Positions 50,239 to 61,146 of a stretch of 64,000 bases of DNA are shown here, one piece after another; the first letter of the stretch is position 1; every line of letters starts with the position of its first letter. The stretch is taken from positions 2,336,001 to 2,400,000 of the forward strand of contig JASGHG010000001.1 in the NCBI GenBank assembly GCA_047602425.1, written 5' to 3'. The notes under the pieces were generated by a model. It saw only the letters and a program-made list of their open reading frames with translations, made no database searches and was not told the origin of the DNA. Both the position numbers and the translations under genes were made by a program. This DNA comes from Nibricoccus sp. GTDB lineage: Bacteria; Verrucomicrobiota; Verrucomicrobiia; Opitutales; Opitutaceae.

Positions 50239-50242
50239 TGGA

Positions 50243-50551
50243 TGGTGGGCCCACTGGGATTCGAACCCAGAACCAAAGGATTATGCTTACCACTTCGACT
50301 TTTGCCGCCGGATTTTTATTCGGAAATCCGTGCGTGGTCTGGACCATGCCTTCGCCGTGACATTGCTGTTTTAGGCGGGTGATTATGGTCTCTACACCTT
50401 CACGTATTCGAGAAACGACTACGTGCTTGGCTCGGCGTTGGGTCGTCCTTGCGGACAGGCCGTTCACCGAATTTACACCTGACAACCGGCGCGTTTCCAC
50501 GCCGGCGACCCGAATCTGAGTCCTCTGCTCTAACCGTTGAGCTATAGGCCC
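50243..50551 (-). tRNA. tRNA-Ile2(CAT) interrupted by a group I intron
   Basis: Exon 1 50551-50519 (GGGCCTATAGCTCAACGGTTAGAGCAGAGGACT) plus exon 2 50285-50243 (CATAATCCTTTGGTTCTGGGTTCGAATCCCAGTGGGCCCACCA) give a canonical 76-nt Ile2-like tRNA. Confidence 0.9.
50286..50518 (-). ncRNA. Group I self-splicing intron, 233 nt, no ORF (IC3-like)
   Basis: 5' exon ends in U with P1 GACUC/GGGUC (U-G wobble); P AAAUUCGGUGAA, Q AACGCCGAGCCAAG, R GUGUAGAGACCA, S AAGGCAUGGUCC; terminal omega-G. Confidence 0.9.
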
Positions 50552-50702: not shown

Positions 50703-51614
50703 TCACTTTAGCTGTAGAACTCTGCGTAGTTCTGCGACCAGATGAGCGGCACCAGGACGAATCGCGACAAGGCGCGGATTCCAAACGAGCACGATGGGAC
50801 GTTTCAACTGCTCGAGGATCTTGGACTCGATCACGACGTAGTCCACGGGCGCGAGGTCGGTCAATGCTAGCTTTGGCAAGATGGCGGCAAAGTGGCCCGA
50901 GCGAACTGCACTCAGTGCGTGAGGGAACGATTGGCAAGCGATGGTGGGAGCGAAAGCCGCGCCGCATTCCTCAGTTAGTGCACGAAGTTTTTGTGCGAAT
51001 TGGCCGTCGGTTGTTTGGGCGACGAGCGGGACTTTGGCTAGAACCTCTTCCAGCGTGAGCTGTTGAACTCGTGATACGAGTTTGCGGGGAACGACAGCCA
51101 CAAATGGAACATCTCCCAATGGTGCCGACTTGAGGCCTTCGCCAACCGCGTCGCGGCGGATCAGGCCGAAGTCGATGCGGCCATCGTTCAGTTGCTGGAC
51201 GATTTCGTTCGTGCGGTGATTGTAGGTAGAGAATCGCATCGGCGTTTTTCCGTGTGAAACTTGGCCGAGCCGTGGGAGCACTAACCATTGAAGCAGGTTG
51301 TCGCCGGCTGCTATACTGTACTCGACGCAGCCCGCATGGCATTCCGAGCGGAAATCCTGTAGCGATCGTAGTTGGTTGCGGGCGAGTTCTGCCAGGCGTG
51401 CGCCTTGAACGGTGAGTTTGAGGATTTTTCCCTGCCGCTTAGTGACTTCGACGCCAAAGAATTCAGAGAGCTCGCGCAATTGACGGCTATATTGGCTCTG
51501 GCGAATGGGATCGCCAGGAGCTGCTTGGGCAATGCTGCCTGCGTCCTGAACTTCAACCAAGACCTTGAGTCGGTCGAGGGATAGACCGCGTTCTGCGAAG
51601 AGAGTGTCAAACAT
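50703..51614 (-). CDS. LysR-family transcriptional regulator
   Basis: LDRLKVLVEVQDAGSIAQAA...QSQYSRQLRELSEFFG HTH, LT.QG, DGRIDFGL. Confidence 0.88.
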   Translation of the reverse strand: MFDTLFAERGLSLDRLKVLVEVQDAGSIAQAAPGDPIRQSQYSRQLRELSEFFGVEVTKRQGKILKLTVQGARLAELARNQLRSLQDFRSECHAGCVEYSIAAGDNLLQWLVLPRLGQVSHGKTPMRFSTYNHRTNEIVQQLNDGRIDFGLIRRDAVGEGLKSAPLGDVPFVAVVPRKLVSRVQQLTLEEVLAKVPLVAQTTDGQFAQKLRALTEECGAAFAPTIACQSFPHALSAVRSGHFAAILPKLALTDLAPVDYVVIESKILEQLKRPIVLVWNPRLVAIRPGAAHLVAELRRVLQLK

Positions 51615-51647: not shown

Positions 51648-51797
51648 ATGGCAAGACTTCTCACGATCGGGTAAAGTCTGCCCCGTCAACTGAGCCGGGA
51701 TTTAAAAATCACGAGAAATATTTTAAACACCTCTTGATTTTTGAAACCCCGGATCCGTTGTAACTCTTCGAACACTCATTCGTCTCAACCTTCTGCC

Positions 51798-51953
51798 ATG
51801 AATTCCACACGACAAATAAAATCAACGACCCTCCGGTTAGCGGAGAGGCATTGGTCGTGCGGCAAACAGACTGCCAAGATGACCATGCGTCGAGGTTTGG
51901 AAAGTTTCCGACCCGACTATGCGAATATTAACCAAGGAAGTGGTGTAACCTGA
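51798..51953 (+). CDS. Putative 51-aa leader peptide (uORF) of the tRNA array
   Basis: ATG...TGA ending 25 nt before a terminator; its last codons contain the antiterminator strand GGAAGTGG. Confidence 0.55.
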   Translation: MNSTRQIKSTTLRLAERHWSCGKQTAKMTMRRGLESFRPDYANINQGSGVT

Positions 51954-51978
51954 GCAACGACTTTACGTAGACTCAAGG

Positions 51979-52007
51979 AACCCACTTCCCTCAGAAGTGG
52001 GTTTTTT
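51979..52007 (+). terminator. Intrinsic terminator (attenuator) upstream of the tRNA array
   Basis: AACCCACTTC-CCTCA-GAAGTGGGTT followed by TTTT. Confidence 0.8.
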
Positions 52008-52336
52008 CATGCCTGAAAAGCCGCTTCTGGGATCCGAGCAAGACTCGTTTTTCCAAGTTTCAAGCGGCTTCACTGCTGAGCCCAGGTCAATCAGCCAACG
52101 TCCGCACAAAATCCCGCGGCCGTCCAAACCACTCGCAAAGTGATAGGGCCGGAGGTGTGTGTTCTTTTTTGCGAATGCAGGAGCCGAAACAAGCTCCTGC
52201 ACTAATATATCAAGATGCGGTGCGCTTAGATGGCGTTAAACGGCGATGCCGGCCGCATTTTCAATTTTCCCGCGCACGAGCTAAAGACCGACAGTGTTGT
52301 TATATTTGTTGTGAGGTCACAGCTCCGGCGCGAAAA

Positions 52337-52413
52337 CGCCTTGTCGTCTAACAGCATAGGATCCCGGAATTTCAAACCGAGGGATGGGGGTGCGAATCCC
52401 GTCGAGGCGACCA
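52337..52413 (+). tRNA. tRNA-Glu(TTC), weak anticodon stem
   Basis: CGCCTTG/CGAGGCG acceptor, loop ATTTCAA, T-loop TGCGAAT, CCA. Confidence 0.65.
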
Positions 52414-52521
52414 TTTTGTTCGAACAAGCGCCGGTTCTTAGTCCGAGACCGGAGTGCGCAGTCCCCATCGGATTTCCCGCGAGCCAGTCGGCGGCCAATG
52501 CCGGCAGGGGAATATTTCCAT

Positions 52522-52595
52522 GCGTGTGTGGCGTAACAGCAACGTGCCGGTCTGCCAGTCCGGAGTTCCGAGTGCGATCCTCGGCATGCGCACCA
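52522..52595 (+). tRNA. tRNA-Gly(GCC), A73
   Basis: GCGTGTG/CATGCGC acceptor, loop CTGCCAG, CCA. Confidence 0.8.
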
Positions 52596-52602
52596 TTTTC
52601 AT

Positions 52603-52693
52603 GCGCCGGTCCCCATAGCAGCGATTGGTCCAGACTTTTAATCTGGAGAGCCGCAACGCTCCAACGGGGGTGCAAGTCCCTCTCGGCGCACCA
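52603..52693 (+). tRNA. tRNA-Lys(TTT) with a long variable arm
   Basis: CCAGA-CTTTTAA-TCTGG; variable hairpin GAGC-CGCAAC-GCTC; CCA. Confidence 0.75.
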
Positions 52694-52713
52694 ATTTAAT
52701 AGATACAATTTAC

Positions 52714-52791
52714 GCACGTCGAGGGAGCCAGTGAACCCGGCTGCCTGCAAAGCAGTGTTTCAGCACGGTGCGACACCGTGGACGTGCTCCA
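52714..52791 (+). tRNA. tRNA-Cys(GCA)
   Basis: GCACGTC/GACGTGC acceptor, loop CTGCAAA, U73, CCA. Confidence 0.8.
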
Positions 52792-52799
52792 TTTCATTT

Positions 52800-52874
52800 G
52801 GGGATATGGCCGAGTTAGTAAGGCATCCGCCCTGCAAGCGGACCATGAGGGTGCGAATCCCTCTGTCTCCACCA
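52800..52874 (+). tRNA. tRNA-Ala(TGC)
   Basis: G3-U70 pair, TCCGC-CCTGCAA-GCGGA, CCA. Confidence 0.85.
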
Positions 52875-52912
52875 ATCTTTCCCCCGGTTTTGCGCGAGTG
52901 GGCCGGGTTCAA

Positions 52913-52987
52913 GCCTGAGAGGTGTTGATAGATACACGACCGTCTTCCAAGCGGATGTAGCCGGCGCGATACCGGCCTCGGGCACCA
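52913..52987 (+). tRNA. tRNA-Gly(TCC), A73
   Basis: GCCTGAG/CTCGGGC acceptor, loop CTTCCAA, CCA. Confidence 0.8.
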
Positions 52988-52994
52988 TTTTTAT

Positions 52995-53072
52995 AGCAGG
53001 ATGGAGGAGCGGCCGTCCTCACCAGCCTCATAAGCTGCGAGATCGCTGGTTCAAATCCAGCTCCTGCTACCA
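52995..53072 (+). tRNA. tRNA-Met(CAT), initiator-like
   Basis: A11-U24 pair, loop CTCATAA; the only array member with canonical D-loop GG and T-loop TTCAAAT. Confidence 0.8.
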
Positions 53073-53078
53073 TTTCAT

Positions 53079-53153
53079 ACGGACGTGGCAGACAAGCAAT
53101 GCAGCGGTCTCCAAAACCGCCTTATGGGGGAGCGATACCCTCCGTCCGTGCCA
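53079..53153 (+). tRNA. tRNA-Trp(CCA)
   Basis: GCGGT-CTCCAAA-ACCGC, G73, CCA. Confidence 0.85.
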
Positions 53154-53250
53154 ATTTGCAATATGAAGAGTAACACTTCGCCGAGGGCGAAGGACGAGTA
53201 AAAGTCTCGTTGAAGCAATGTGCGGCTCCGCGTTCAGCGGGGCTGTATCT

Positions 53251-53326
53251 GGAGGTTAGGCCGATCTAGTGATGGCACGTGGTTGAAGCCCACGAGAGCG
53301 CGGCGCAAAACCGCGAGCCTCCACCA
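53251..53326 (+). tRNA. tRNA-Phe(GAA)
   Basis: CGTGG-TTGAAGC-CCACG, CCA. Confidence 0.8.
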
Positions 53327-53334
53327 ATTTTCAT

Positions 53335-53410
53335 CGGGGTGTAGCGTAGCAGCCAACGCGCTCGGCTTGGGACCGAAAGATCGCAGGTGCAACTCCTGTC
53401 ATCCCGACCA
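53335..53410 (+). tRNA. tRNA-Pro(TGG)
   Basis: C1-G72, A73, loop CTTGGGA, CCA. Confidence 0.85.
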
Positions 53411-53463
53411 GTTTTCCAGGTGTGTGGCCCAGTCAGCGGGGCACCGGCCCGTGACGCCGGGGA

Positions 53464-53526
53464 CGGAGCGAAGCGGAGATGGGGCCGCCGATAAGCGGAG
53501 GGCGTCATCCCCGAGCGTAGCGAGCC
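53464..53526 (-). mobile_element. Palindromic mini-element, reverse copy in the His tRNA variable loop
   Basis: CGGAGCGAAGCGGAGATGG...GAGCGTAGCGAGCC is the reverse complement of the family consensus. Confidence 0.65.
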
Positions 53527-53540
53527 AAATGGGTGCAATT

Positions 53541-53619
53541 GACTCGTATTCGACAAGCGGATACTCGGGCCTTCGGCCCGCACCTGCGGTGCGCCGTTCC
53601 GCGTAGGAACCACGCTCCA
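53541..53619 (+). mobile_element. Palindromic mini-element in the His tRNA T-loop
   Basis: GACTCG-hp-CTC-hp-hp-GCCGTTCCGC-hp-GCTCCA after TGCAATT. Confidence 0.7.
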
Positions 53620-53639
53620 CCCACCCACCTGACCATTTC

Positions 53640-53716
53640 GCTCGTGGAGGCGAAGTAGTCGAGGCAACCCTCTGTCTGAGGGGAGTAAGCCGGTGCGAGT
53701 CCGGTCGCGAGCGCCA
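53640..53716 (+). tRNA. tRNA-Asp(GTC)
   Basis: GCTCGTG/CGCGAGC acceptor, loop CTGTCTG, G73, CCA. Confidence 0.75.
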
Positions 53717-53723
53717 ATTCTAT

Positions 53724-53800
53724 CGAGGCGTAGCCAAGCAGCTAAGGCAGCTGGCCTACACCCAGCCATTCCGGGGGTGCAAGTCCCTCCGCCTCGACCA
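53724..53800 (+). tRNA. tRNA-Val(TAC)
   Basis: GCTGG-CCTACAC-CCAGC, CCA. Confidence 0.85.
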
Positions 53801-53806
53801 TTTGAT

Positions 53807-53881
53807 TCTGGAGTAGTTCAGCAGCAGAACGCCTGGCTGTTAACCAGGATGTCGCAGGGGCAGAACCTGCCTCCAGAGCCA
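53807..53881 (+). tRNA. tRNA-Asn(GTT)
   Basis: U1-A72, CCTGG-CTGTTAA-CCAGG, G73, CCA. Confidence 0.88.
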
Positions 53882-53885
53882 TTTT

Positions 53886-53961
53886 CGTCGGCGAGACGGC
53901 CAGTGAAGTCACCTGCCCGACATGCAGGCAACGCTCGGTGCGACACCGAGGCCGACGACCA
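53886..53961 (+). tRNA. tRNA-Val(GAC)
   Basis: CCTGC-CCGACAT-GCAGG, CCA. Confidence 0.82.
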
Positions 53962-54055
53962 TTTCCTTAGTTGTGTCGGAGGATTGGGCACAGCGAGGAG
54001 ATCAACTGGCCCGGCCACAGGCCGGAGACGAGTGCCTCCGCTCCGCCAGCACCAT

Positions 54056-54130
54056 CCGGACGTAGTGTAGCAGCAACATACTCGCCTCGGACGCGAGTGA
54101 CCGAGGGTGCAAATCCCTCCGTCCGGACCA
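54056..54130 (+). tRNA. tRNA-Pro(CGG), A37
   Basis: C1-G72, CTCGC-CTCGGAC-GCGAG, CCA. Confidence 0.85.
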
Positions 54131-54136
54131 ATTTTT

Positions 54137-54211
54137 TGCGGTGTCGTCTAACACGCAGGACAGCGGACTTTGAATCCGTTTGTGGAGGTGCGAATCCTCC
54201 CGCCGCAGCCA
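54137..54211 (+). tRNA. tRNA-Gln(TTG)
   Basis: U1-A72, GCGGA-CTTTGAA-TCCGT, G73, CCA. Confidence 0.88.
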
Positions 54212-54215
54212 GCCT

Positions 54216-54355
54216 TGGTCACAAGCTTTAATAGTTAAGCCGCCGGCTCTTAACCGGCAGAACTCGGAGCATTTGACTCGCGCATACGCGCTCGGGGCCT
54301 TGCCCCTAACCTGCTGGTTAGCCGCTCCGCGTTGCTCCGCCGAGGCGGCCCACCA
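54216..54355 (+). pseudogene. tRNA-Lys(CTT) interrupted in the T-loop
   Basis: GCCGG-CTCTTAA-CCGGC; T-stem CTCGG/CCGAG split by a 65-nt element; two acceptor mismatches. Confidence 0.7.
54275..54339 (+). mobile_element. Palindromic mini-element in the Lys(CTT) T-loop
   Basis: GACTCG-hp-CTC-hp-hp-GCCGCTCCGC-GTT-GCTCCG after AGCATTT. Confidence 0.7.
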
Positions 54356-54356
54356 T

Positions 54357-54433
54357 GGCTCGATGGCGCAGCATGTAGCGCAGCTCCCTCATAACGAGAA
54401 GGTCGCGGGGTGCGAATCCCGCTCGAGCCCCCA
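54357..54433 (+). tRNA. tRNA-Met/Ile(CAT), degenerate
   Basis: GGCTCGA/TCGAGCC acceptor, loop CTCATAA, imperfect anticodon stem, C73. Confidence 0.65.
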
Positions 54434-54440
54434 TTTTCAA

Positions 54441-54528
54441 CGGGACGTGGCAGAGCAGCAAATGCAACGCACTGTAAATGCGTCGGCTTTACAGCCTATC
54501 ACTGGTGCAAGTCCAGTCGGCCCGACCA
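54441..54528 (+). tRNA. tRNA-Tyr(GTA), C1-G72
   Basis: ACGCA-CTGTAAA-TGCGT, long variable arm, CCA. Confidence 0.85.
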
Positions 54529-54643
54529 CTTTCTCGGTCTCATGGGTGCCAACAACTCATGCTTTTGTCGGTTAAGGTTAAAACCGGCCAGCAGTTCTGG
54601 TGGATCAGAGCAATCGTTAGGTTTTTGCGTAAAAAACCAGTTT

Positions 54644-54719
54644 GCCTCTTAAGCATAGTTAGCGATGCAACTTCTTGGTAAGGAGTAGATGGTCGGCGCA
54701 CATCCGACAGGAGGCTCCA
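54644..54719 (+). tRNA. tRNA-Thr(GGT)
   Basis: GCCTCTT/AGGAGGC acceptor, loop TTGGTAA, CCA. Confidence 0.8.
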
Positions 54720-54726
54720 ATTTCAT

Positions 54727-54884
54727 GCGAGCGTGGCGGAATAGCATACGCGCCGGCCCGAGATGCCGGTGAGCGCAAGCTCATGAGGGTGCGATTGACT
54801 CGTATTCGACGAGCGAATACTCGGGCCTGCGGCCCATGCCTGACGGCATGCCGTTCCGCTTCGCTTCACCCTTCGTTCGCACCA
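54727..54884 (+). pseudogene. tRNA-Leu(GAG) interrupted in the T-loop
   Basis: CCGGC-CCGAGAT-GCCGG, long variable arm; T-stem GAGGG/CCCTT split by a 72-nt element; otherwise intact, CCA. Confidence 0.75.
54797..54868 (+). mobile_element. Palindromic mini-element in the Leu(GAG) T-loop
   Basis: GACTCG-hp-CTC-hp-hp-GCCGTTCCGC-TTC-GCTTCA after TGCGATT. Confidence 0.72.
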
Positions 54885-54890
54885 ATTTAT

Positions 54891-54980
54891 CGCGGCGTGG
54901 TTGGAATTAGTATACACAGCGGTCTCAAAATCCGCTGGGCTTCAACGCCCGTGCCGGTGCGAGTCCGGTCGCCGCGACCA
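54891..54980 (+). tRNA. tRNA-Leu(CAA)
   Basis: Loop CTCAAAA, long variable arm, CCA. Confidence 0.82.
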
Positions 54981-54981
54981 T

Positions 54982-55069
54982 GCGGCTGTGTGTGGAAAAG
55001 TAGACCAGGCGGTTTTAAAAACCGCTGCGCCTCTGGCGCGTGGGCGTGCAAGTCGCCCCAGCCGCACCA
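54982..55069 (+). tRNA. tRNA-Leu(TAA)
   Basis: GCGGT-TTTAAAA-ACCGC, long variable arm, CCA. Confidence 0.8.
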
Positions 55070-55078
55070 ATTTGATAT

Positions 55079-55165
55079 CGGCAAGTGATGGAACAAGCAT
55101 ACACGCGAGTCTCAGAAACTCGAGGGCGCGAGCCTGTGCAGGTGCAAATCCTGTCTTGCCGACCA
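55079..55165 (+). tRNA. tRNA-Leu(CAG), A37
   Basis: CGAGT-CTCAGAA-ACTCG, long variable arm, CCA. Confidence 0.85.
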
Positions 55166-55174
55166 TTTTACTAT

Positions 55175-55251
55175 CGCCCTGTCCTCTAACGAGCACAGGA
55201 GACCCGTTTCTCAAATGGGCAATGTGGGTGCAAGTCCCATCGGGGCGACCA
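55175..55251 (+). tRNA. tRNA-Glu(CTC)
   Basis: CCCGT-TTCTCAA-ATGGG, CCA. Confidence 0.82.
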
Positions 55252-55255
55252 TTGA

Positions 55256-55347
55256 CGCCGCGTAGTTCAAAGTGAACCGTCCGCCTTATAAACGGAATCG
55301 CGCTAGATGAGCGCCAGGCCCGGGAGCGTTACCCGGCGCGGCGACCA
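55256..55347 (+). tRNA. tRNA-Ile(TAT) with a long variable arm
   Basis: TCCGC-CTTATAA-ACGGA; variable hairpin GCGCT-AGATG-AGCGC; CCA. Confidence 0.72.
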
Positions 55348-55425
55348 ATTTGGGGCAGTGAGAACAGGGGTACTTCGTTCGAAACACGTCAAACAACACC
55401 TTGTTCATGTTTCTCCTCAATATAT

Positions 55426-55500
55426 GCCTCTTATGCGTAGTTAGCGACGCGCGGCGCTTGTACCGCTGAAAGGCCGGCGCAAATCCGGCAGGAGGCTCCA
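55426..55500 (+). tRNA. tRNA-Thr(TGT)
   Basis: CGGCG-CTTGTAC-CGCTG, CCA. Confidence 0.8.
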
Positions 55501-55504
55501 ATTT

Positions 55505-55579
55505 CTCCCTGTAGTGAAATAGCTATCACACGGCTCTGCGAAGGCCGAGATCCAGGTGCAAGTCCCGGCAGGGGGACCA
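55505..55579 (+). tRNA. tRNA-Arg(GCG)
   Basis: CGGCT-CTGCGAA-GGCCG, CCA. Confidence 0.8.
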
Positions 55580-55587
55580 TTTTTCAG

Positions 55588-55662
55588 CTCTGCGTGGTGA
55601 AATTATTATCATGTCGTGCTTCGAACGCGTCGTTGTGGCTGGGATTCCCGCCGCAGAGTCCA
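55588..55662 (+). tRNA. tRNA-Arg(TCG), degenerate T-arm
   Basis: CTCTGCG/CGCAGAG acceptor, loop CTTCGAA, CCA. Confidence 0.65.
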
Positions 55663-55704
55663 ATCTCGTTGTATCTATGCCGTGGTTTATTGCGGCGATA
55701 TTTT

Positions 55705-55777
55705 CTCCGCGTGGCCGAGAAGCTCAGGCCTCCGCCTTCTAAGCGGATCGACGCAGGTGCAAATCCTGTCGCGGAGA
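55705..55777 (+). tRNA. tRNA-Arg(TCT), CCA not encoded
   Basis: TCCGC-CTTCTAA-GCGGA, CTCCGCG/CGCGGAG acceptor. Confidence 0.8.
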
Positions 55778-55783
55778 CTTTAC

Positions 55784-55874
55784 GGAGGCGAAATCGGACA
55801 AGCGTGCCGACAACCGTTTGAAGCGGTCAGGGCGACTGCGTGTCGCTGGGGAGCATGACCTCTCGCCTCCGCCA
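55784..55874 (+). tRNA. tRNA-Ser(TGA)
   Basis: GGAGGCG/CGCCTCC acceptor, G73, long variable arm, loop TTTGAAG. Confidence 0.72.
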
Positions 55875-55880
55875 ATCTTT

Positions 55881-55966
55881 GGAGAGTAAAGCCGTGAAGC
55901 GCGGCGACCGGTTGGAAGCCGGCTCGGACCTCCGGGTCTGTGGGGCGGAACCACTGCTCTCCGCCA
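55881..55966 (+). tRNA. tRNA-Ser(GGA)
   Basis: GGAGAGT/GCTCTCC acceptor, G73, loop TTGGAAG, long variable arm. Confidence 0.75.
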
Positions 55967-55974
55967 AATTTGAT

Positions 55975-56200
55975 GGAGAGTGAATCCGCCGAGGTGCGGA
56001 CACTGTTTCGACGAAGCGAAGCGGAGATGGATCGACCGAAGGTCGACCCGCAGGGTGAGCGTAGCGAATCAAAGCAGATGGATTGCCGGCACAAAGACTC
56101 CGCTTTGTTCGTCGTGTTGCCCGCGTTGCGGGCGCCCACGCGACTACCCCTCGCTTCGCTCAGGGCTGCGCCATCTTCGTGCTGCGCACTCCGTCCGCCA
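55975..56200 (+). pseudogene. tRNA-Ser(CGA) disrupted by several palindromic insertions
   Basis: GGAGAGT 5' end, ACTGT-TTCGA, insert, AAAGCAG; ends TCCGCCA; a second degenerate element at about 56148-56193. Confidence 0.6.
56012..56070 (-). mobile_element. Palindromic mini-element, reverse copy in the Ser(CGA) anticodon loop
   Basis: CGAAGCGAAGCGGAGATGG-hp-hp-GAGCGTAGCGAATC followed by AA. Confidence 0.68.
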
Positions 56201-56204
56201 TCTT

Positions 56205-56278
56205 CCTCGTGTAGCTCAAAAGCAGAGCAATCGGCTGATAACCGATCGACGTCGGAGCGTTACCGAATGCGAGGACCA
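56205..56278 (+). tRNA. tRNA-Ile(GAT)
   Basis: ATCGG-CTGATAA-CCGAT, CCA. Confidence 0.85.
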
Positions 56279-56691: not shown

Positions 56692-57327
56692 ATGAACACT
56701 AGCATTCTCGATAAACCCATCGTCCTGTCGCTTAACCGCGCCTGGCAGGTGATCGGCCACCGTACCGTGAAGCAGGCTCTCGTAGCTCTTAACGGTGGTT
56801 CGGCTGGTCTACCGCCTGCGCTCGGTCTCGACATTGCCTATCCGAAGCTCGACGACGGTGGTTGGAATTTCGACCGCCCGCTTTTCCTCAATCCACTTCC
56901 GTGGGTTGATTGGATCAATCTGCCGGTTCGTGAATTCGACTTCGTCGTTGCGACGCCGCGGATGCAAATCCGCGTGCCAACCGTTATCATCTCGACGCAA
57001 TATGATCGCATGCCGATTCGGCTTCCGCGGGTCACGCGCCAGGCGATTTTTGAGCGCGATGGTGGTATCTGCCAATACACCGGCGAGTACGTCGGCAAAG
57101 GCGGCGGTAATCTCGATCACGTTGTGCCCCGCGACCGCGGTGGCCGCGACAGCTTCGAGAACCTCGTCTGGGCAAAAAAGGAGATCAACTCGATGAAGGC
57201 TAACCGTCTTCCCCACGAGGCCGGTCTCCGACTGCTCCGCCGTCCGAAAACGCCCGCGCCGTTGCCCGCCGCCGCGGCCATCCGCGAGCCCAAACATCCT
57301 GACTGGCGCCACTTCCTCGCACACTGA
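56692..57327 (+). CDS. HNH endonuclease
   Basis: VLSLNRAWQ, TRQAIFERDGGICQYTG, LDHVVPRDRGG...ENLV...NSMKAN. Confidence 0.9.
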   Translation: MNTSILDKPIVLSLNRAWQVIGHRTVKQALVALNGGSAGLPPALGLDIAYPKLDDGGWNFDRPLFLNPLPWVDWINLPVREFDFVVATPRMQIRVPTVIISTQYDRMPIRLPRVTRQAIFERDGGICQYTGEYVGKGGGNLDHVVPRDRGGRDSFENLVWAKKEINSMKANRLPHEAGLRLLRRPKTPAPLPAAAAIREPKHPDWRHFLAH

Positions 57328-57396
57328 AACCCTGCGGTGGGGGAGTGGCCCAAGCCGACTCAACGACTTATCGCCTTTTCCGCAGGGCTAACTTCC

Positions 57397-58104
57397 ATGA
57401 ACACCGAATCAACATCTTCCATCGGGATCTCCGATGTCCTCGACATCGTAGATACTGCCCTGGCGACGATCTCCCGTCGTTTGCCGGTCCATGTTGGTCG
57501 TGAAGACTTGGCCACTGTTGGCAAGCTCGCGCTCATATCTGCGCTGGGCCAGTGCAGTGGTTCGGTCAGCGAGGTTCGCGCTTACTGCTTCGTGCGTGTG
57601 CGCGGTGCAATTCTGGACGAACTGCGCCGCCTCGATCCGCTTTCGCGCCGCCGCCGTGAACAAGTGACGGCGGTTGTTCGCGCCCAGGCAGAACTGAGCG
57701 CGCGCTTCAGCCGTGCAGCCACGCGGGCTGAAATCGCGGTGGCGACAAAACTGTCCATTGCCGAGGTCGCGGCCGTGCAGCACATGCTCGCTCAGGAATC
57801 GGAGTTTTCAGAAACGGAATTGGACATGTTGCCGGACACGGTAGCGCCAACGCCGGCTGAAACTTCTGAAACCGAGGACCTGCGTTTAAATCTGCGTGGC
57901 GCACTTCAACGGCTGTCAGGCAACCAGGCAGCGGTTCTGTACCGCTATTACTTCGATGAAGTGACGCTCGATGTAATCGCGGCCGAGATGGGCCTCTCGA
58001 AAGAGCGTGTCCGTCAGATCCGCGACGCCGGTGAGAAAAAACTCCGTGCTGACTTCATCGTCCTGTCGATCTGGCAGTCACTCTTTAATCACAGCCGGGA
58101 TTAG
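57397..58104 (+). CDS. Sigma-70 factor, FliA/WhiG-like
   Basis: RLPVHVGREDL...G.LALI, RVRGAILDELRRLDPLSR, TLDVIAAEMGLSKERVRQI. Confidence 0.85.
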   Translation: MNTESTSSIGISDVLDIVDTALATISRRLPVHVGREDLATVGKLALISALGQCSGSVSEVRAYCFVRVRGAILDELRRLDPLSRRRREQVTAVVRAQAELSARFSRAATRAEIAVATKLSIAEVAAVQHMLAQESEFSETELDMLPDTVAPTPAETSETEDLRLNLRGALQRLSGNQAAVLYRYYFDEVTLDVIAAEMGLSKERVRQIRDAGEKKLRADFIVLSIWQSLFNHSRD

Positions 58105-58124: not shown

Positions 58125-58793
58125 ATGCGCTTTTTGGACAAACACACCATTCGGGACAAGCTGTTGCTTAGCCTTGAACGCGAGCGCAACCGGCTTAGGC
58201 AGGCGCAGCGAGATGCTCCGATTGTTCCGCTGGAACATCCTTACCAGCGTGGCTGGGTGAAGACGTTTCAACTTCGTGAGGATGTTTCACGTCGTCCGGA
58301 CGTTGCCATTTTCCGAACAATCTTGGCTGCCGTGAACCGGAAAGTTTTTTCCCGCAATCGAGAATTTCTAAATCCACGGGGAGAGGAAATCCTGCTGCGA
58401 CCGAAGAAACTCAGAATCGACCAGTGGAGAAAGCTGGCTTGGCCAGCCAGTCATCAGCGCTTCTTTGCTTTCGGGCATTGGCGAGCGGACGAAGAGGCAT
58501 GGATGCCTTTGCGGCTCCGCCGGCTGCTGCCCGGCTACAAGCTGGTGCATAACTGGTGGTTAGTAGAAGATACACAGCCGCATTTGATCACTCACCAGCG
58601 CGTGGAGCTTCCGGCAGTCCGCAAGCGCCTTGCAGAAATTGAGGCATACCTGAGCCATCGGCAGGGACACGAGCGACTCAACAAGCTTCATGGCCGGAGT
58701 GATTGGTGGCGCAGATTTGTGGAATCGCGTGCCGAAATTCGGACAAATTGCTTTATCGAAGAGCAGCTCGCCGCGAAATCCATACATGACTGA
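58125..58793 (+). CDS. Basic, Trp/Arg-rich hypothetical protein
   Basis: 222-aa ORF, co-oriented within the operon; VPLEHPYQRGWVKTFQLREDV. Confidence 0.65.
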   Translation: MRFLDKHTIRDKLLLSLERERNRLRQAQRDAPIVPLEHPYQRGWVKTFQLREDVSRRPDVAIFRTILAAVNRKVFSRNREFLNPRGEEILLRPKKLRIDQWRKLAWPASHQRFFAFGHWRADEEAWMPLRLRRLLPGYKLVHNWWLVEDTQPHLITHQRVELPAVRKRLAEIEAYLSHRQGHERLNKLHGRSDWWRRFVESRAEIRTNCFIEEQLAAKSIHD

Positions 58794-58887: not shown

Positions 58888-59376
58888 ATGAAAACGATCA
58901 CCCTTTCACACGCCCTGAAACACAAAAACCGTCTGGCCGGCGACGTCGCACGGCTGCGCGAAATCGTGCAACGCGAAAACTCACGCAAGGAATCGCAGCC
59001 GGCTCGCGCCGACGTGCGGGTTGCCTTCGACGATAGCGTCGCCCGTTCCCGCGAACTGGCTGCTTTCAAAGGTGCAATCGCCTCCGCAAATGCAGGCGTG
59101 CTTTCCGAGGATCGTGGTATCTATGCCAAGTTGAATCTTCAGGCCGAGCTGCGTGGCCTGATCGTCTTTATCAAGGGGCTCAACACCAAGGAGGGTGAAG
59201 AGGTTGAGCGCGTCGGCTTCATGAGTCGCGACGATGCCATCCGCACGGTCTACGTTGCAACGATTACCCGCGAGGAAGTTGATCGTCTGGTTGTCGCCTA
59301 TCAGAATGAAATCGAACGTTTGCAGGATGAAATCGACGAGTTCAACGCAACAACGCGCATTCCTTTGACCAACTAG
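58888..59376 (+). CDS. DIP1984-like coiled-coil protein
   Basis: ITLSHALKHKNRL...LK.AI..AN...EIERLQDEIDEFN pattern. Confidence 0.6.
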   Translation: MKTITLSHALKHKNRLAGDVARLREIVQRENSRKESQPARADVRVAFDDSVARSRELAAFKGAIASANAGVLSEDRGIYAKLNLQAELRGLIVFIKGLNTKEGEEVERVGFMSRDDAIRTVYVATITREEVDRLVVAYQNEIERLQDEIDEFNATTRIPLTN

Positions 59377-59599: not shown

Positions 59600-61146
59600 A
59601 TGAATATGGAAATCAAAGCCCGTGATCTCGTTGCTGCCGGTTGGCATGAAGGCCGCCGCCTGGGCGCTGCTCTCCGCCGCGCACGTGATCTCGAATCCAC
59701 TGGAATTTCTCGCGCCGAAGTGCTCGTTCAACTCGAACAAGAATTTCCAAAGCAACTCGCCGTGATTCTTCCGCGCTATGAGCCGGCTCCGCTGGCCGAA
59801 GCGATCGAAGCTACCACACCGGAAGAAGCGACCAACGTTACCTCGGCCCGTCAGCGCATGCTCGAACTTCTCCACGTCCCGGTGGTGAAGCGCGGAAGCA
59901 TCATGCCGGACGCCTGCCCGTCGGGTGGTGGTCGTGCCACGATTCCGGTTGGGGGAGCCATCGAAGTCGAGAATGCCATCATTCCCGGCGCTCACTCGGC
60001 TGATATCTGCTGCTCGATGTACGCATCCTTTTTCCCGGCCAACCATCCGGTGGGCGAAATGATGGATCATCTTCAGAAGACCACGCACTTCGGTGCGGGT
60101 GGTCGTGCACGCGGTCAGCAATGGACCACGTCGGTGGTGGAAGAGCCGGTTTGGGATAACCCTTTCCTTTCCGGACTGCGTAGCCGGGCCAGGATTTCAT
60201 GGGAACCCAAGGCGACGGAAATCATTTCGCCTATGTCGGACGTATCCAGTTTACGGATGCGCAACGCGCTGCGCTTGAATCCGCCGGCTATACCGAACTC
60301 ACCGAATGGATCGTGCGCCGCGACGGTGAATTCAACGTCCTCGTGACTCACCACGGTTCGCGTGGTCTCGGTGCTGATGTGTACAAACGCGGCCAGAAAG
60401 CTGCCCGCAAATGGTGTGACGAAAACGCCAAAGATATTCCCGACGCAGCTGTCTGGTTGCCGTACGATTCTCCGGATGGCTCCGCTTACTGGGACGCGTT
60501 GCAGTACGTATCTCGCTGGACGCGTGAAAACCACGCCCAGATCCATGCCGCCTTCCTGCGTCGCTTGGGTCAGCGTGGCCTCGTGCAAATCGGCAACGAG
60601 CACAACTTTGTTTGGAAACGCGGAGATTCTTTCTTCCACGGAAAGGGTGCTACGCCGGCGTGGAAAGACGCGCAGGGCCGTCCGCTGCTCGGAATTATTC
60701 CGCTTAACATGGCCCGTGAAATCCTCCTCGTACTTGGTTCGGACAACAACAACTACCTGTCGTTCTGTCCGCACGGCGCTGGTCGCAACCTGTCGCGCTC
60801 GGCCATGCTGCGTCCTTACAAAGACGTGGACGGTGAAATCGATCCGGCACTCGTGCAGAAGACCCTGGCCGAAACCACGGCCGGGCTTGATATCCGTTGG
60901 TTCAATGGCGCACCGGATTTGTCCGAGTCTCCGCTCGGCTACAAAAACGCTACGCAGGTGAAGGCGCAGATCGACCGCTTTGGTTTGGCCACGGTGGTTG
61001 GCGAAATCCAACCGCGCGGTTGCATAATGGCCGGCGAAGCTCCGGAACCGCCATGGGCTCGTGCTCGCCGCGAAAAACGCGCTGCCCACAAAGCCATGCG
61101 CCGCGAAGGTGAAGCTGAGGCGGCTGAAAGTGCGCGAACTTTGTGA
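59600..61146 (+). pseudogene. rtcB: RtcB family RNA ligase, frameshifted near 60189
   Basis: MPDAC, IPVGG, SADICCSM in one frame; GTQGDGNHF, HHGSRGLG, HNF, HGKGAT, HGAGR, ESPLGYK in another; one added C restores ...RAQDFMGTQG. Confidence 0.88.

Follow-up and report, generated by a model that had tools for sequence, protein, structure and literature searches.

The 64,000-nucleotide (nt) window of Nibricoccus sp. (Opitutaceae, Verrucomicrobiota) considered here, positions 2,336,001 to 2,400,000 of contig JASGHG010000001.1, contains a long array of tRNA genes preceded by a leader which most likely acts as a ribosome-coupled transcription attenuator reporting on translation as a whole. The architecture of the attenuator, its conservation, the covariation of its pairing strands and the selection for a leader peptide complete in amino acids are all supported by the comparisons presented below. 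The translation of the leader, its termination and read-through and the inducing signals are inferred by analogy with known attenuators. In this bacterium and in many relatives, the spare tRNAs, the sigma factor and the RNA-repair genes located downstream are probably expressed only when ribosomes stall.

The leader encodes a uORF (upstream open reading frame) whose final codons harbor a strand S2, GGAAGTGG, exactly complementary to CCACTTCC (51982-51989), the strand S3 of an intrinsic terminator (Table 1). As stated in the first-pass annotation of this DNA, made from the letters alone, the uORF stop ends 25 nt upstream of the terminator arm, a T-run is present, and the 51 codons, when recounted, comprise all 20 amino acids and 39 different codons, including ATA, TTA, AGG and three CGA. 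With uniform sense codons, the chance of finding all 20 amino acids in a single copy is about 4-5%, in line with the rough estimate made at that time, and that of finding at least 39 codons is about 5%. The leader peptide has no Pfam match. Upon folding of the alternative structures in the window copy, the antiterminator reaches -23.0 kcal/mol (z -4.2) and the terminator -15.6 kcal/mol (z -4.5), each outscoring 200 of 200 shuffles, and the two-hairpin fold that includes the strand S5 reaches -45.7 kcal/mol (z -6.3). Since bases 51982-51988 are common to both folds, antiterminator and terminator exclude each other, as had been proposed.

To avoid circularity, homologous leaders were collected in three ways. 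Set (a) was gathered without using the attenuator, and consists of 11 loci found by whole-region DNA similarity and 76 found by a conserved element downstream of the terminator alone (87 in total). An in-frame uORF of 49-60 codons, GTG starts being allowed, occurs in 83 of these 87 loci; among the four loci dropped, one is truncated, one lacks the antiterminator and two are frame-shifted, the stop still following S2 in the latter two as judged by eye. Alignment of these orthologous leaders also reveals the conserved stop position that the first-pass annotation had named as a check, the stop lying exactly 5 codons past the first base of S2 in 68 of the 82 automatically parsed loci; the other two frames are open with an ATG at the same distance in only 3/82 and 0/82. 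Set (b), retrieved with the S2-S3-S4 motif alone (S4 being the 3' arm of the terminator), comprises 115 metagenome and 10 genome loci, 11 of them with a cut 5' end. A uORF is found in 111 of the 114 complete loci, with a stop 10-27 nt after the start of S2, and these uORFs use all three frames relative to S2 while stopping at the same place; two of the three loci devoid of a uORF resemble what we take, from the motif, to be thiamine pyrophosphate riboswitches. Locus L175, counted in this set, looks like a repeat-array artefact and was excluded from the analyses of nascent folding, conserved element, sensing region and codon excess. Set (c) was obtained with the downstream sigma factor gene alone as a query and yielded 26 upstream regions, 14 others being left out (2 from this genome, 11 with leaders already in the set, 1 at a contig end). 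Twenty of the 26 contain the attenuator and the uORF, two the motif as seen by eye and one the terminator alone; neither attenuator nor terminator was found in the other three, within the DNA examined.

Covariation, counted over 74 leaders forming 26 clusters, supports both of the competing stems. S2:S3 is paired in 570 of 592 cells, with one position changing from TA to CG in 6 of the 26 clusters and another from GC to AT in 2 clusters. As S4 keeps its G in the latter case, S2:S3 is supported independently of the terminator, so that the covarying antiterminator anticipated for this leader is recovered. S3:S4 is paired in 582 of 592 cells, and 5 clusters have GC in place of AT. For S5 and the 3' arm of the terminator, 711 of 740 cells are paired, a count that is biased upward because the partner was picked as the best match; this genome changes both S4 (G to A) and S5 (C to T).

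Folding under a ribosome mask, with an assumed footprint of -15 to +13 around the A site, is consistent with the switch logic put forward at first, namely that a ribosome close to the stop keeps the antiterminator from forming. With the A site at most 9 codons from the stop, the probability of the terminator in the window copy is 0.8-1.0, up from 0.04-0.55. The claim that a stall anywhere upstream would free the antiterminator thus holds, in the folding model, for stalls at a distance from the stop of more than about 9-10 codons, but not for nearer ones. The predicted sensing region accordingly covers codons 1-42 of the window copy, which encode 19 of the 20 amino acids, Val occurring only in the tail. 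In transcripts ending before S4, S2:S3 has a probability above 0.5 in 22 of 26 clusters when no ribosome is placed; with an A site at -20 codons the count is 23 of 26, and with one at -3 it is 0 of 26, the last value following from the mask itself. An upstream 1:2 hairpin, which would terminate an untranslated leader, was not recovered in these leaders: the naked nascent RNA forms S2:S3, and a partner in the 5' untranslated region pairing all 8 bases occurs in only 8 of the 74 leaders.

The completeness of the peptide had been a weak hint in a single copy, and the family-wide comparison turns it into a strong signal of a selected trait. Among the 74 distinct peptides of the first set, all 20 amino acids are present in 33, and at least 19 in 52. 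Complete windows represent 1.8-3.6% of real protein windows of this genome and 2.2% under the pooled composition; out of 74, 2.1 are expected after base shuffles and 3.4 from column chimeras, a null in which each alignment column is kept and linkage is broken. Cluster representatives are complete in 8 of 26 cases versus 0.8 expected, and 24 of the 26 clusters lie above their own shuffle mean. Three of four large clusters exceed their chimeras by +0.7 to +0.9, and the excess across representatives is +1.5, to be compared with -0.06 +/- 0.25 in windows of the sigma factor and of TROVE proteins, and with small values in the other frames. In the second set, 42 of 98 peptides are complete versus 2.9 expected, including 13 of the 48 that share less than 50% identity with the first set (1.0 expected). 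Altogether, 72 of the 164 pooled peptides, which form 57 clusters at 55% identity, are complete. The predicted sensing region alone is complete in 50 of 164 (1.8 expected), with 52 of 57 clusters above the null, and residue types confined to the tail number 0.51 versus 1.16 by permutation, partly because S2 fixes common residues there. An apparent completeness of 14/74 in the +2 frame was rejected, as it came from an added Met, without which only 3 remain, and from disregarding the stops that 66 of these translations contain. Selection for completeness is therefore real but imperfect. The peptide sequence drifts, whereas its length, the place where it stops and the presence of one or more codons for almost all amino acids are preserved.

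Such a pattern could also be the by-product of an attenuator tuned to particular antibiotics or to a nascent-peptide arrest motif, which we regard as improbable. Partly conserved peptide motifs would fit this explanation, and so would the only modest surplus of changes at third codon positions over the first two (0.32 vs 0.23) and the existence of uORFs that sense several classes of antibiotics, such as toiL in the part of PMC12121999 available. Nevertheless, no motif is invariant over the 57 clusters, three different frames are used for the C-terminus, and the chimera test removes position-specific conservation as a cause. In addition, rare residues which are lost at their usual place are regained elsewhere, e.g., Trp in loci L068 and L129 and Phe in L025, L043 and L062; in L035, Trp is simply gone. 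No tandem control codons devoted to one amino acid, or to a few, were found in the leaders, whose composition is flat (Ala 9.8%, Arg 11.2%, Ser 10.1% and Thr 9.8%, the rare residues being usually single).

Selection does not clearly extend from amino acids to codons. Sensing the loss of any tRNA, as originally proposed, is not supported: neither codon diversity nor the coverage of the isoacceptors of split codon boxes lies clearly above synonymous nulls. Distinct codons number 35.4 on average, versus 36.3 under uniform usage, 34.3 under pooled leader usage and 33.1 under genome usage; over 57 clusters, the excess over pooled usage gives a sign-test p of 0.06-0.11, and no excess exists over uniform usage. 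The coverage of the split boxes of Leu, Arg, Ser and Ile is no better than expected, and leader codon use is flatter than that of the genome, with a G+C content at third positions of 0.57 vs 0.69. The absence of clear codon or isoacceptor selection indicates that it is the amino acids that the leader covers, rather than each single tRNA.

A number of observations weigh against a leader that reports on translation as a whole. At equilibrium, with the full leader and no ribosome, the terminator probability exceeds 0.6 in 13 of 20 representatives, so that the switch would require co-transcriptional kinetics there; the nascent antiterminator predicted in 22 of 26 clusters makes such a kinetic switch, 'on' by default upon translation failure, plausible. 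No Shine-Dalgarno motif precedes any of the 74 uORFs, and only 9.6% of sampled open reading frames (ORFs) of the genome possess one. At least one amino acid is missing from 41 of the 74 peptides, most often Trp (16), and the cluster-weighted completeness is 0.32. One cluster of 6 shows no chimera excess, its other frames giving +0.5 to +0.6. Some positions are conserved, such as a central W-x-C and a late P-D-Y, which a functional peptide could give as well. Finally, related leaders are not independent, so that the permutation p-values overstate the signal.

In the mechanism that we favor for the attenuator, transcription would start near 51770 and a ribosome would follow the polymerase through the uORF. 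A ribosome reaching the last 9 or so codons in time would cover S2, allowing S3 and S4 to form the terminator and leaving the operon off. A ribosome that fails to start, lags or stalls earlier would let S2 capture S3 before S4 is made. Possible triggers would be damage to tRNAs, a ribosome-targeting antibiotic, or too little charged tRNA for any of the amino acids that the uORF encodes. S4 would later pair with S5, and the polymerase would read into the spare tRNAs, the HNH endonuclease, the sigma factor and the RNA-repair genes.

With respect to the target, the tRNA array does stand downstream of the attenuator, as first described, but the sigma factor gene is its most constant partner; the array and genes for HNH, TROVE and RtcB frequently accompany it. 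Where the locus is minimal, the sigma gene begins 45-80 nt past the terminator. The sigma protein matches TIGR02479 with an E-value of 4.7e-34, below the cutoff of that model. It was found in 37 of 120 genomes of the family and, in a sample of the phylum, in 12 of 34 family genomes, all 12 of which carry the attenuator (9 exact, 3 variant), compared with 1 of the 22 other, sigma-negative family genomes for the exact motif. Neither the sigma factor (at E 1e-28) nor the exact motif was detected in 366 genomes of other families of the phylum, where diverged forms would escape, and the exact motif had no match in viral contigs. Relatives carrying the locus are mostly Opitutaceae. The leader itself was found in 9 of 36 family genomes, and was not found in any of four genomes of the same genus. 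Among RNA runs searched as assembled contigs of relatives, none held half of the words of the stretch; of four runs, X21 gave nothing, X4 gave long contigs over genes on both strands (probably DNA), and X5 and X6 gave a few low-depth pieces.

Control could instead be exerted mainly at initiation, by the divergent LysR regulator or by the operon's own sigma factor, the terminator merely trimming basal output and releasing a trans-acting small RNA or peptide. A LysR homologue lies at most 1.8 kb upstream in 49 of the 78 loci with enough flank, and a promoter-like motif is present in 48 of 74 leaders, 47 of them with an identical 30-nt span. The strict form of this motif occurs in this genome at both leader copies and at one other place (1-6 in shuffles), and no regulon for it was seen in this genome. 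A comparable array of Anabaena is under a repressor, as far as the available text of PMC10272220 goes. However, such an explanation, which we consider quite unlikely, leaves the fixed stop position, the S2:S3 covariation and the completeness of the peptide unexplained, and no LysR was found upstream in 29 of the 78 loci. It is also compatible with the attenuator as an added layer, LysR being a possible second layer of control.

A structured RNA element of about 115 nt follows the terminator. It is present in all 74 leaders followed by at least three tRNAs and in 20 of 37 without such an array, frequencies that are inflated because part of the sample was collected with the element itself; arrays from the other two collection sets carry it as well. 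Its end, in most relatives, is formed by a GT-rich stretch and a T-run. It has no Rfam match at the gathering score. Its interpretation as a second uORF was rejected, as the spacer varies by single bases, and Y RNA, T-box and twister, which came to mind as leads, found no support in Rfam. A role in antitermination or in processing is a guess. The mutually exclusive folds together with this highly conserved structure nearby might suggest a ligand- or tRNA-binding switch of the riboswitch or T-box type, with an incidental ORF. We hold this to be very unlikely: no aptamer family of Rfam was matched, the element lies past the terminator, 17 attenuator loci do without it, and the upstream nucleotides vary while the frame stays open.

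Classical attenuators, e.g., trpL, hisL, thrL and ilvL, combine a leader peptide with alternative antiterminator and terminator structures. The present leader shares this organization, but differs by the lack of a run of control codons, by a length of about 52 codons and by an untranslated state that is predicted, from folding, to read through. General sensing of translation by a uORF attenuator is already known for whiB7. According to the part of PMC10274678 available, efficient translation of the whiB7/wblC uORF leads to intrinsic termination and stalling leads to read-through into a transcription regulator; the composition of the uORF, which in M. smegmatis holds 19 of the 20 amino acids, sets which starvations are sensed, and loss of its only Trp codon weakens Trp sensing. 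The whiB7 uORFs described there are enriched in Ala, and some lack several amino acids. On this partial account, the mycobacterial system, with a diverse uORF overlapping the antiterminator and a regulator downstream, is the closest working analogue. The present system belongs to another phylum with no homology seen, its regulator is a FliA/WhiG-like protein of the sigma-70 family instead of WhiB7, no residue dominates the peptide (Ala included), completeness itself appears as the selected trait, and the output includes a tRNA array and RNA-repair genes. As judged from sequence, the whiB7 logic appears to have been reached separately, with in addition a measurable selection for every amino acid and a connection to a sigma factor.

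The Anabaena trn L-array offers another comparison. In the accessible portions of the two articles, this long supernumerary array of patchy distribution, located beside an HNH gene, is induced by translation stress (PMC8421152) and controlled by the promoter repressor TrcR (PMC10272220). The present array, an L-array in the sense of PMC8421152, resembles it as a long co-oriented redundant set over a complete housekeeping set, linked to HNH and patchily distributed. RtcB belongs to the same regulon in Anabaena and to the same operon here, and the downstream genes overlap those that translation stress induces there (PMC10272220, PMC8421152, as far as available). The Anabaena array differs from the present leader by its use of a promoter repressor; neither 'attenuat' nor 'leader' occurs in the main text of PMC8421152, nor 'leader' in PMC10272220. 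The toiL leader of Escherichia coli, a multipurpose uORF sensing translation stress, differs by relying on translational attenuation and Rho-dependent termination and by controlling a toxin-antitoxin pair (PMC12121999, available part). A literature search, which did not cover subscription journals, found no account of the present leader.

The proposed attenuator provides a testable mechanism for silencing and switching on cryptic bacterial tRNA arrays outside cyanobacteria. It illustrates an unusual selection, which acts on whether every amino acid is present and not on the peptide sequence, with 164 natural variants to test it. The locus also brings forward an uncharacterised sigma factor, together with an RNA element of no known family, as linked to translation stress. 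A short uORF, an excess of amino-acid completeness and a terminator constitute a signature for finding similar sensors. More tentatively, the locus might represent an independently evolved translation-distress circuit of the Opitutaceae, in which a 20-amino-acid checksum leader would command a dedicated sigma factor feeding back on its own promoter, and the RNA of about 115 nt would serve as a processive antiterminator or processing signal across the 4-6 kb tRNA array into tRNA-repair genes; this wider scheme is rather doubtful.

Table 1. Features of the leader and of its surroundings in the window.
Feature	Position	Strand	Remarks
LysR regulator, divergent	50703..51614	-	
Promoter-like motif CTTGAWW-N16-CCGTTGTA	51732..51761	+	ends 36 nt upstream of uORF start; putative function
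Leader uORF	51798..51953	+	51 codons, all 20 amino acids
Antiterminator strand S2, GGAAGTGG	51936..51943	+	within final uORF codons
Antiterminator inner stem (TGAG/CTCA)	51950..51976	+	spans stop codon; from folding; sequence variable among homologues
Intrinsic terminator	51978..52007	+	S3 51982-51989 in 5' arm, S4 51993-52000 in 3' arm
Terminator T-run	52002-52007	+	
S5	52021..52030	+	partner of terminator 3' arm in read-through fold
Conserved structured RNA element	52057..52173	+	ahead of array; two covarying pairs
Supernumerary tRNA array	52337..56278	+	27 genes with relaxed ARAGORN, 14 with default, plus Rfam tRNA at 53807
HNH endonuclease	56692..57327	+	PF13395
FliA/WhiG-like sigma factor	57394..58104	+	Pfam sigma70 r3/r4
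Two conserved proteins of unknown function	58125-58793; 58888-59376	+	second: weak DIP1984-like match
RtcB RNA ligase	59600..61146	+	PF01139; split over two frames

The genome contains 46 further tRNA genes elsewhere, covering all 20 amino acids, and this full housekeeping set makes the array a spare one. Completeness of the leader peptide is weakly related to array size (16 vs 18 clusters, 19.2 vs 18.3 amino acids, p 0.04; Spearman p 0.10). tRNAs for Ser and Asp were called in neither array of this genome, though the leader encodes both amino acids. At the start of the array, a conserved non-tRNA segment (52420-52510), possibly a degenerate tRNA or another RNA, persists in loci devoid of tRNAs, e.g., L004, L005 and L108.

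A second copy of the whole locus, 86-95% identical, occurs about 36.5 kb downstream in the same genome (contig C1 2423266-2435721), with LysR, leader, array (34 tRNA calls) and downstream genes. Its leader is 92% identical and encodes a different peptide of 51 amino acids, which also holds all 20. A TROVE-like gene, called by likeness to a scanned relative, lies within the array of the second copy and is lacking in the window copy. The window RtcB is 99.4% identical to that of the second copy, where the frame is open (511 amino acids), with a single one-base gap. Both proteins of unknown function have homologues in the second copy or in relatives, and several relatives possess an AAA ATPase gene in the operon (e.g., downstream in L029). 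Between the two copies (C1 2409648-2419676), ORFs seen by eye presumably correspond to genes for nicotinamide adenine dinucleotide salvage and to an SPFH-type protein.

Adjoining the LysR gene, on the minus strand (50242-50551), a tRNA gene with a CAT anticodon seems, by eye, to be split by a 233-nt insert that follows U33 and has G as its last base. This gene was called neither by ARAGORN nor by Rfam at an E-value of 1. The insert has the pattern of what we take to be a group I intron, and the interrupted gene may mark the edge of the locus.
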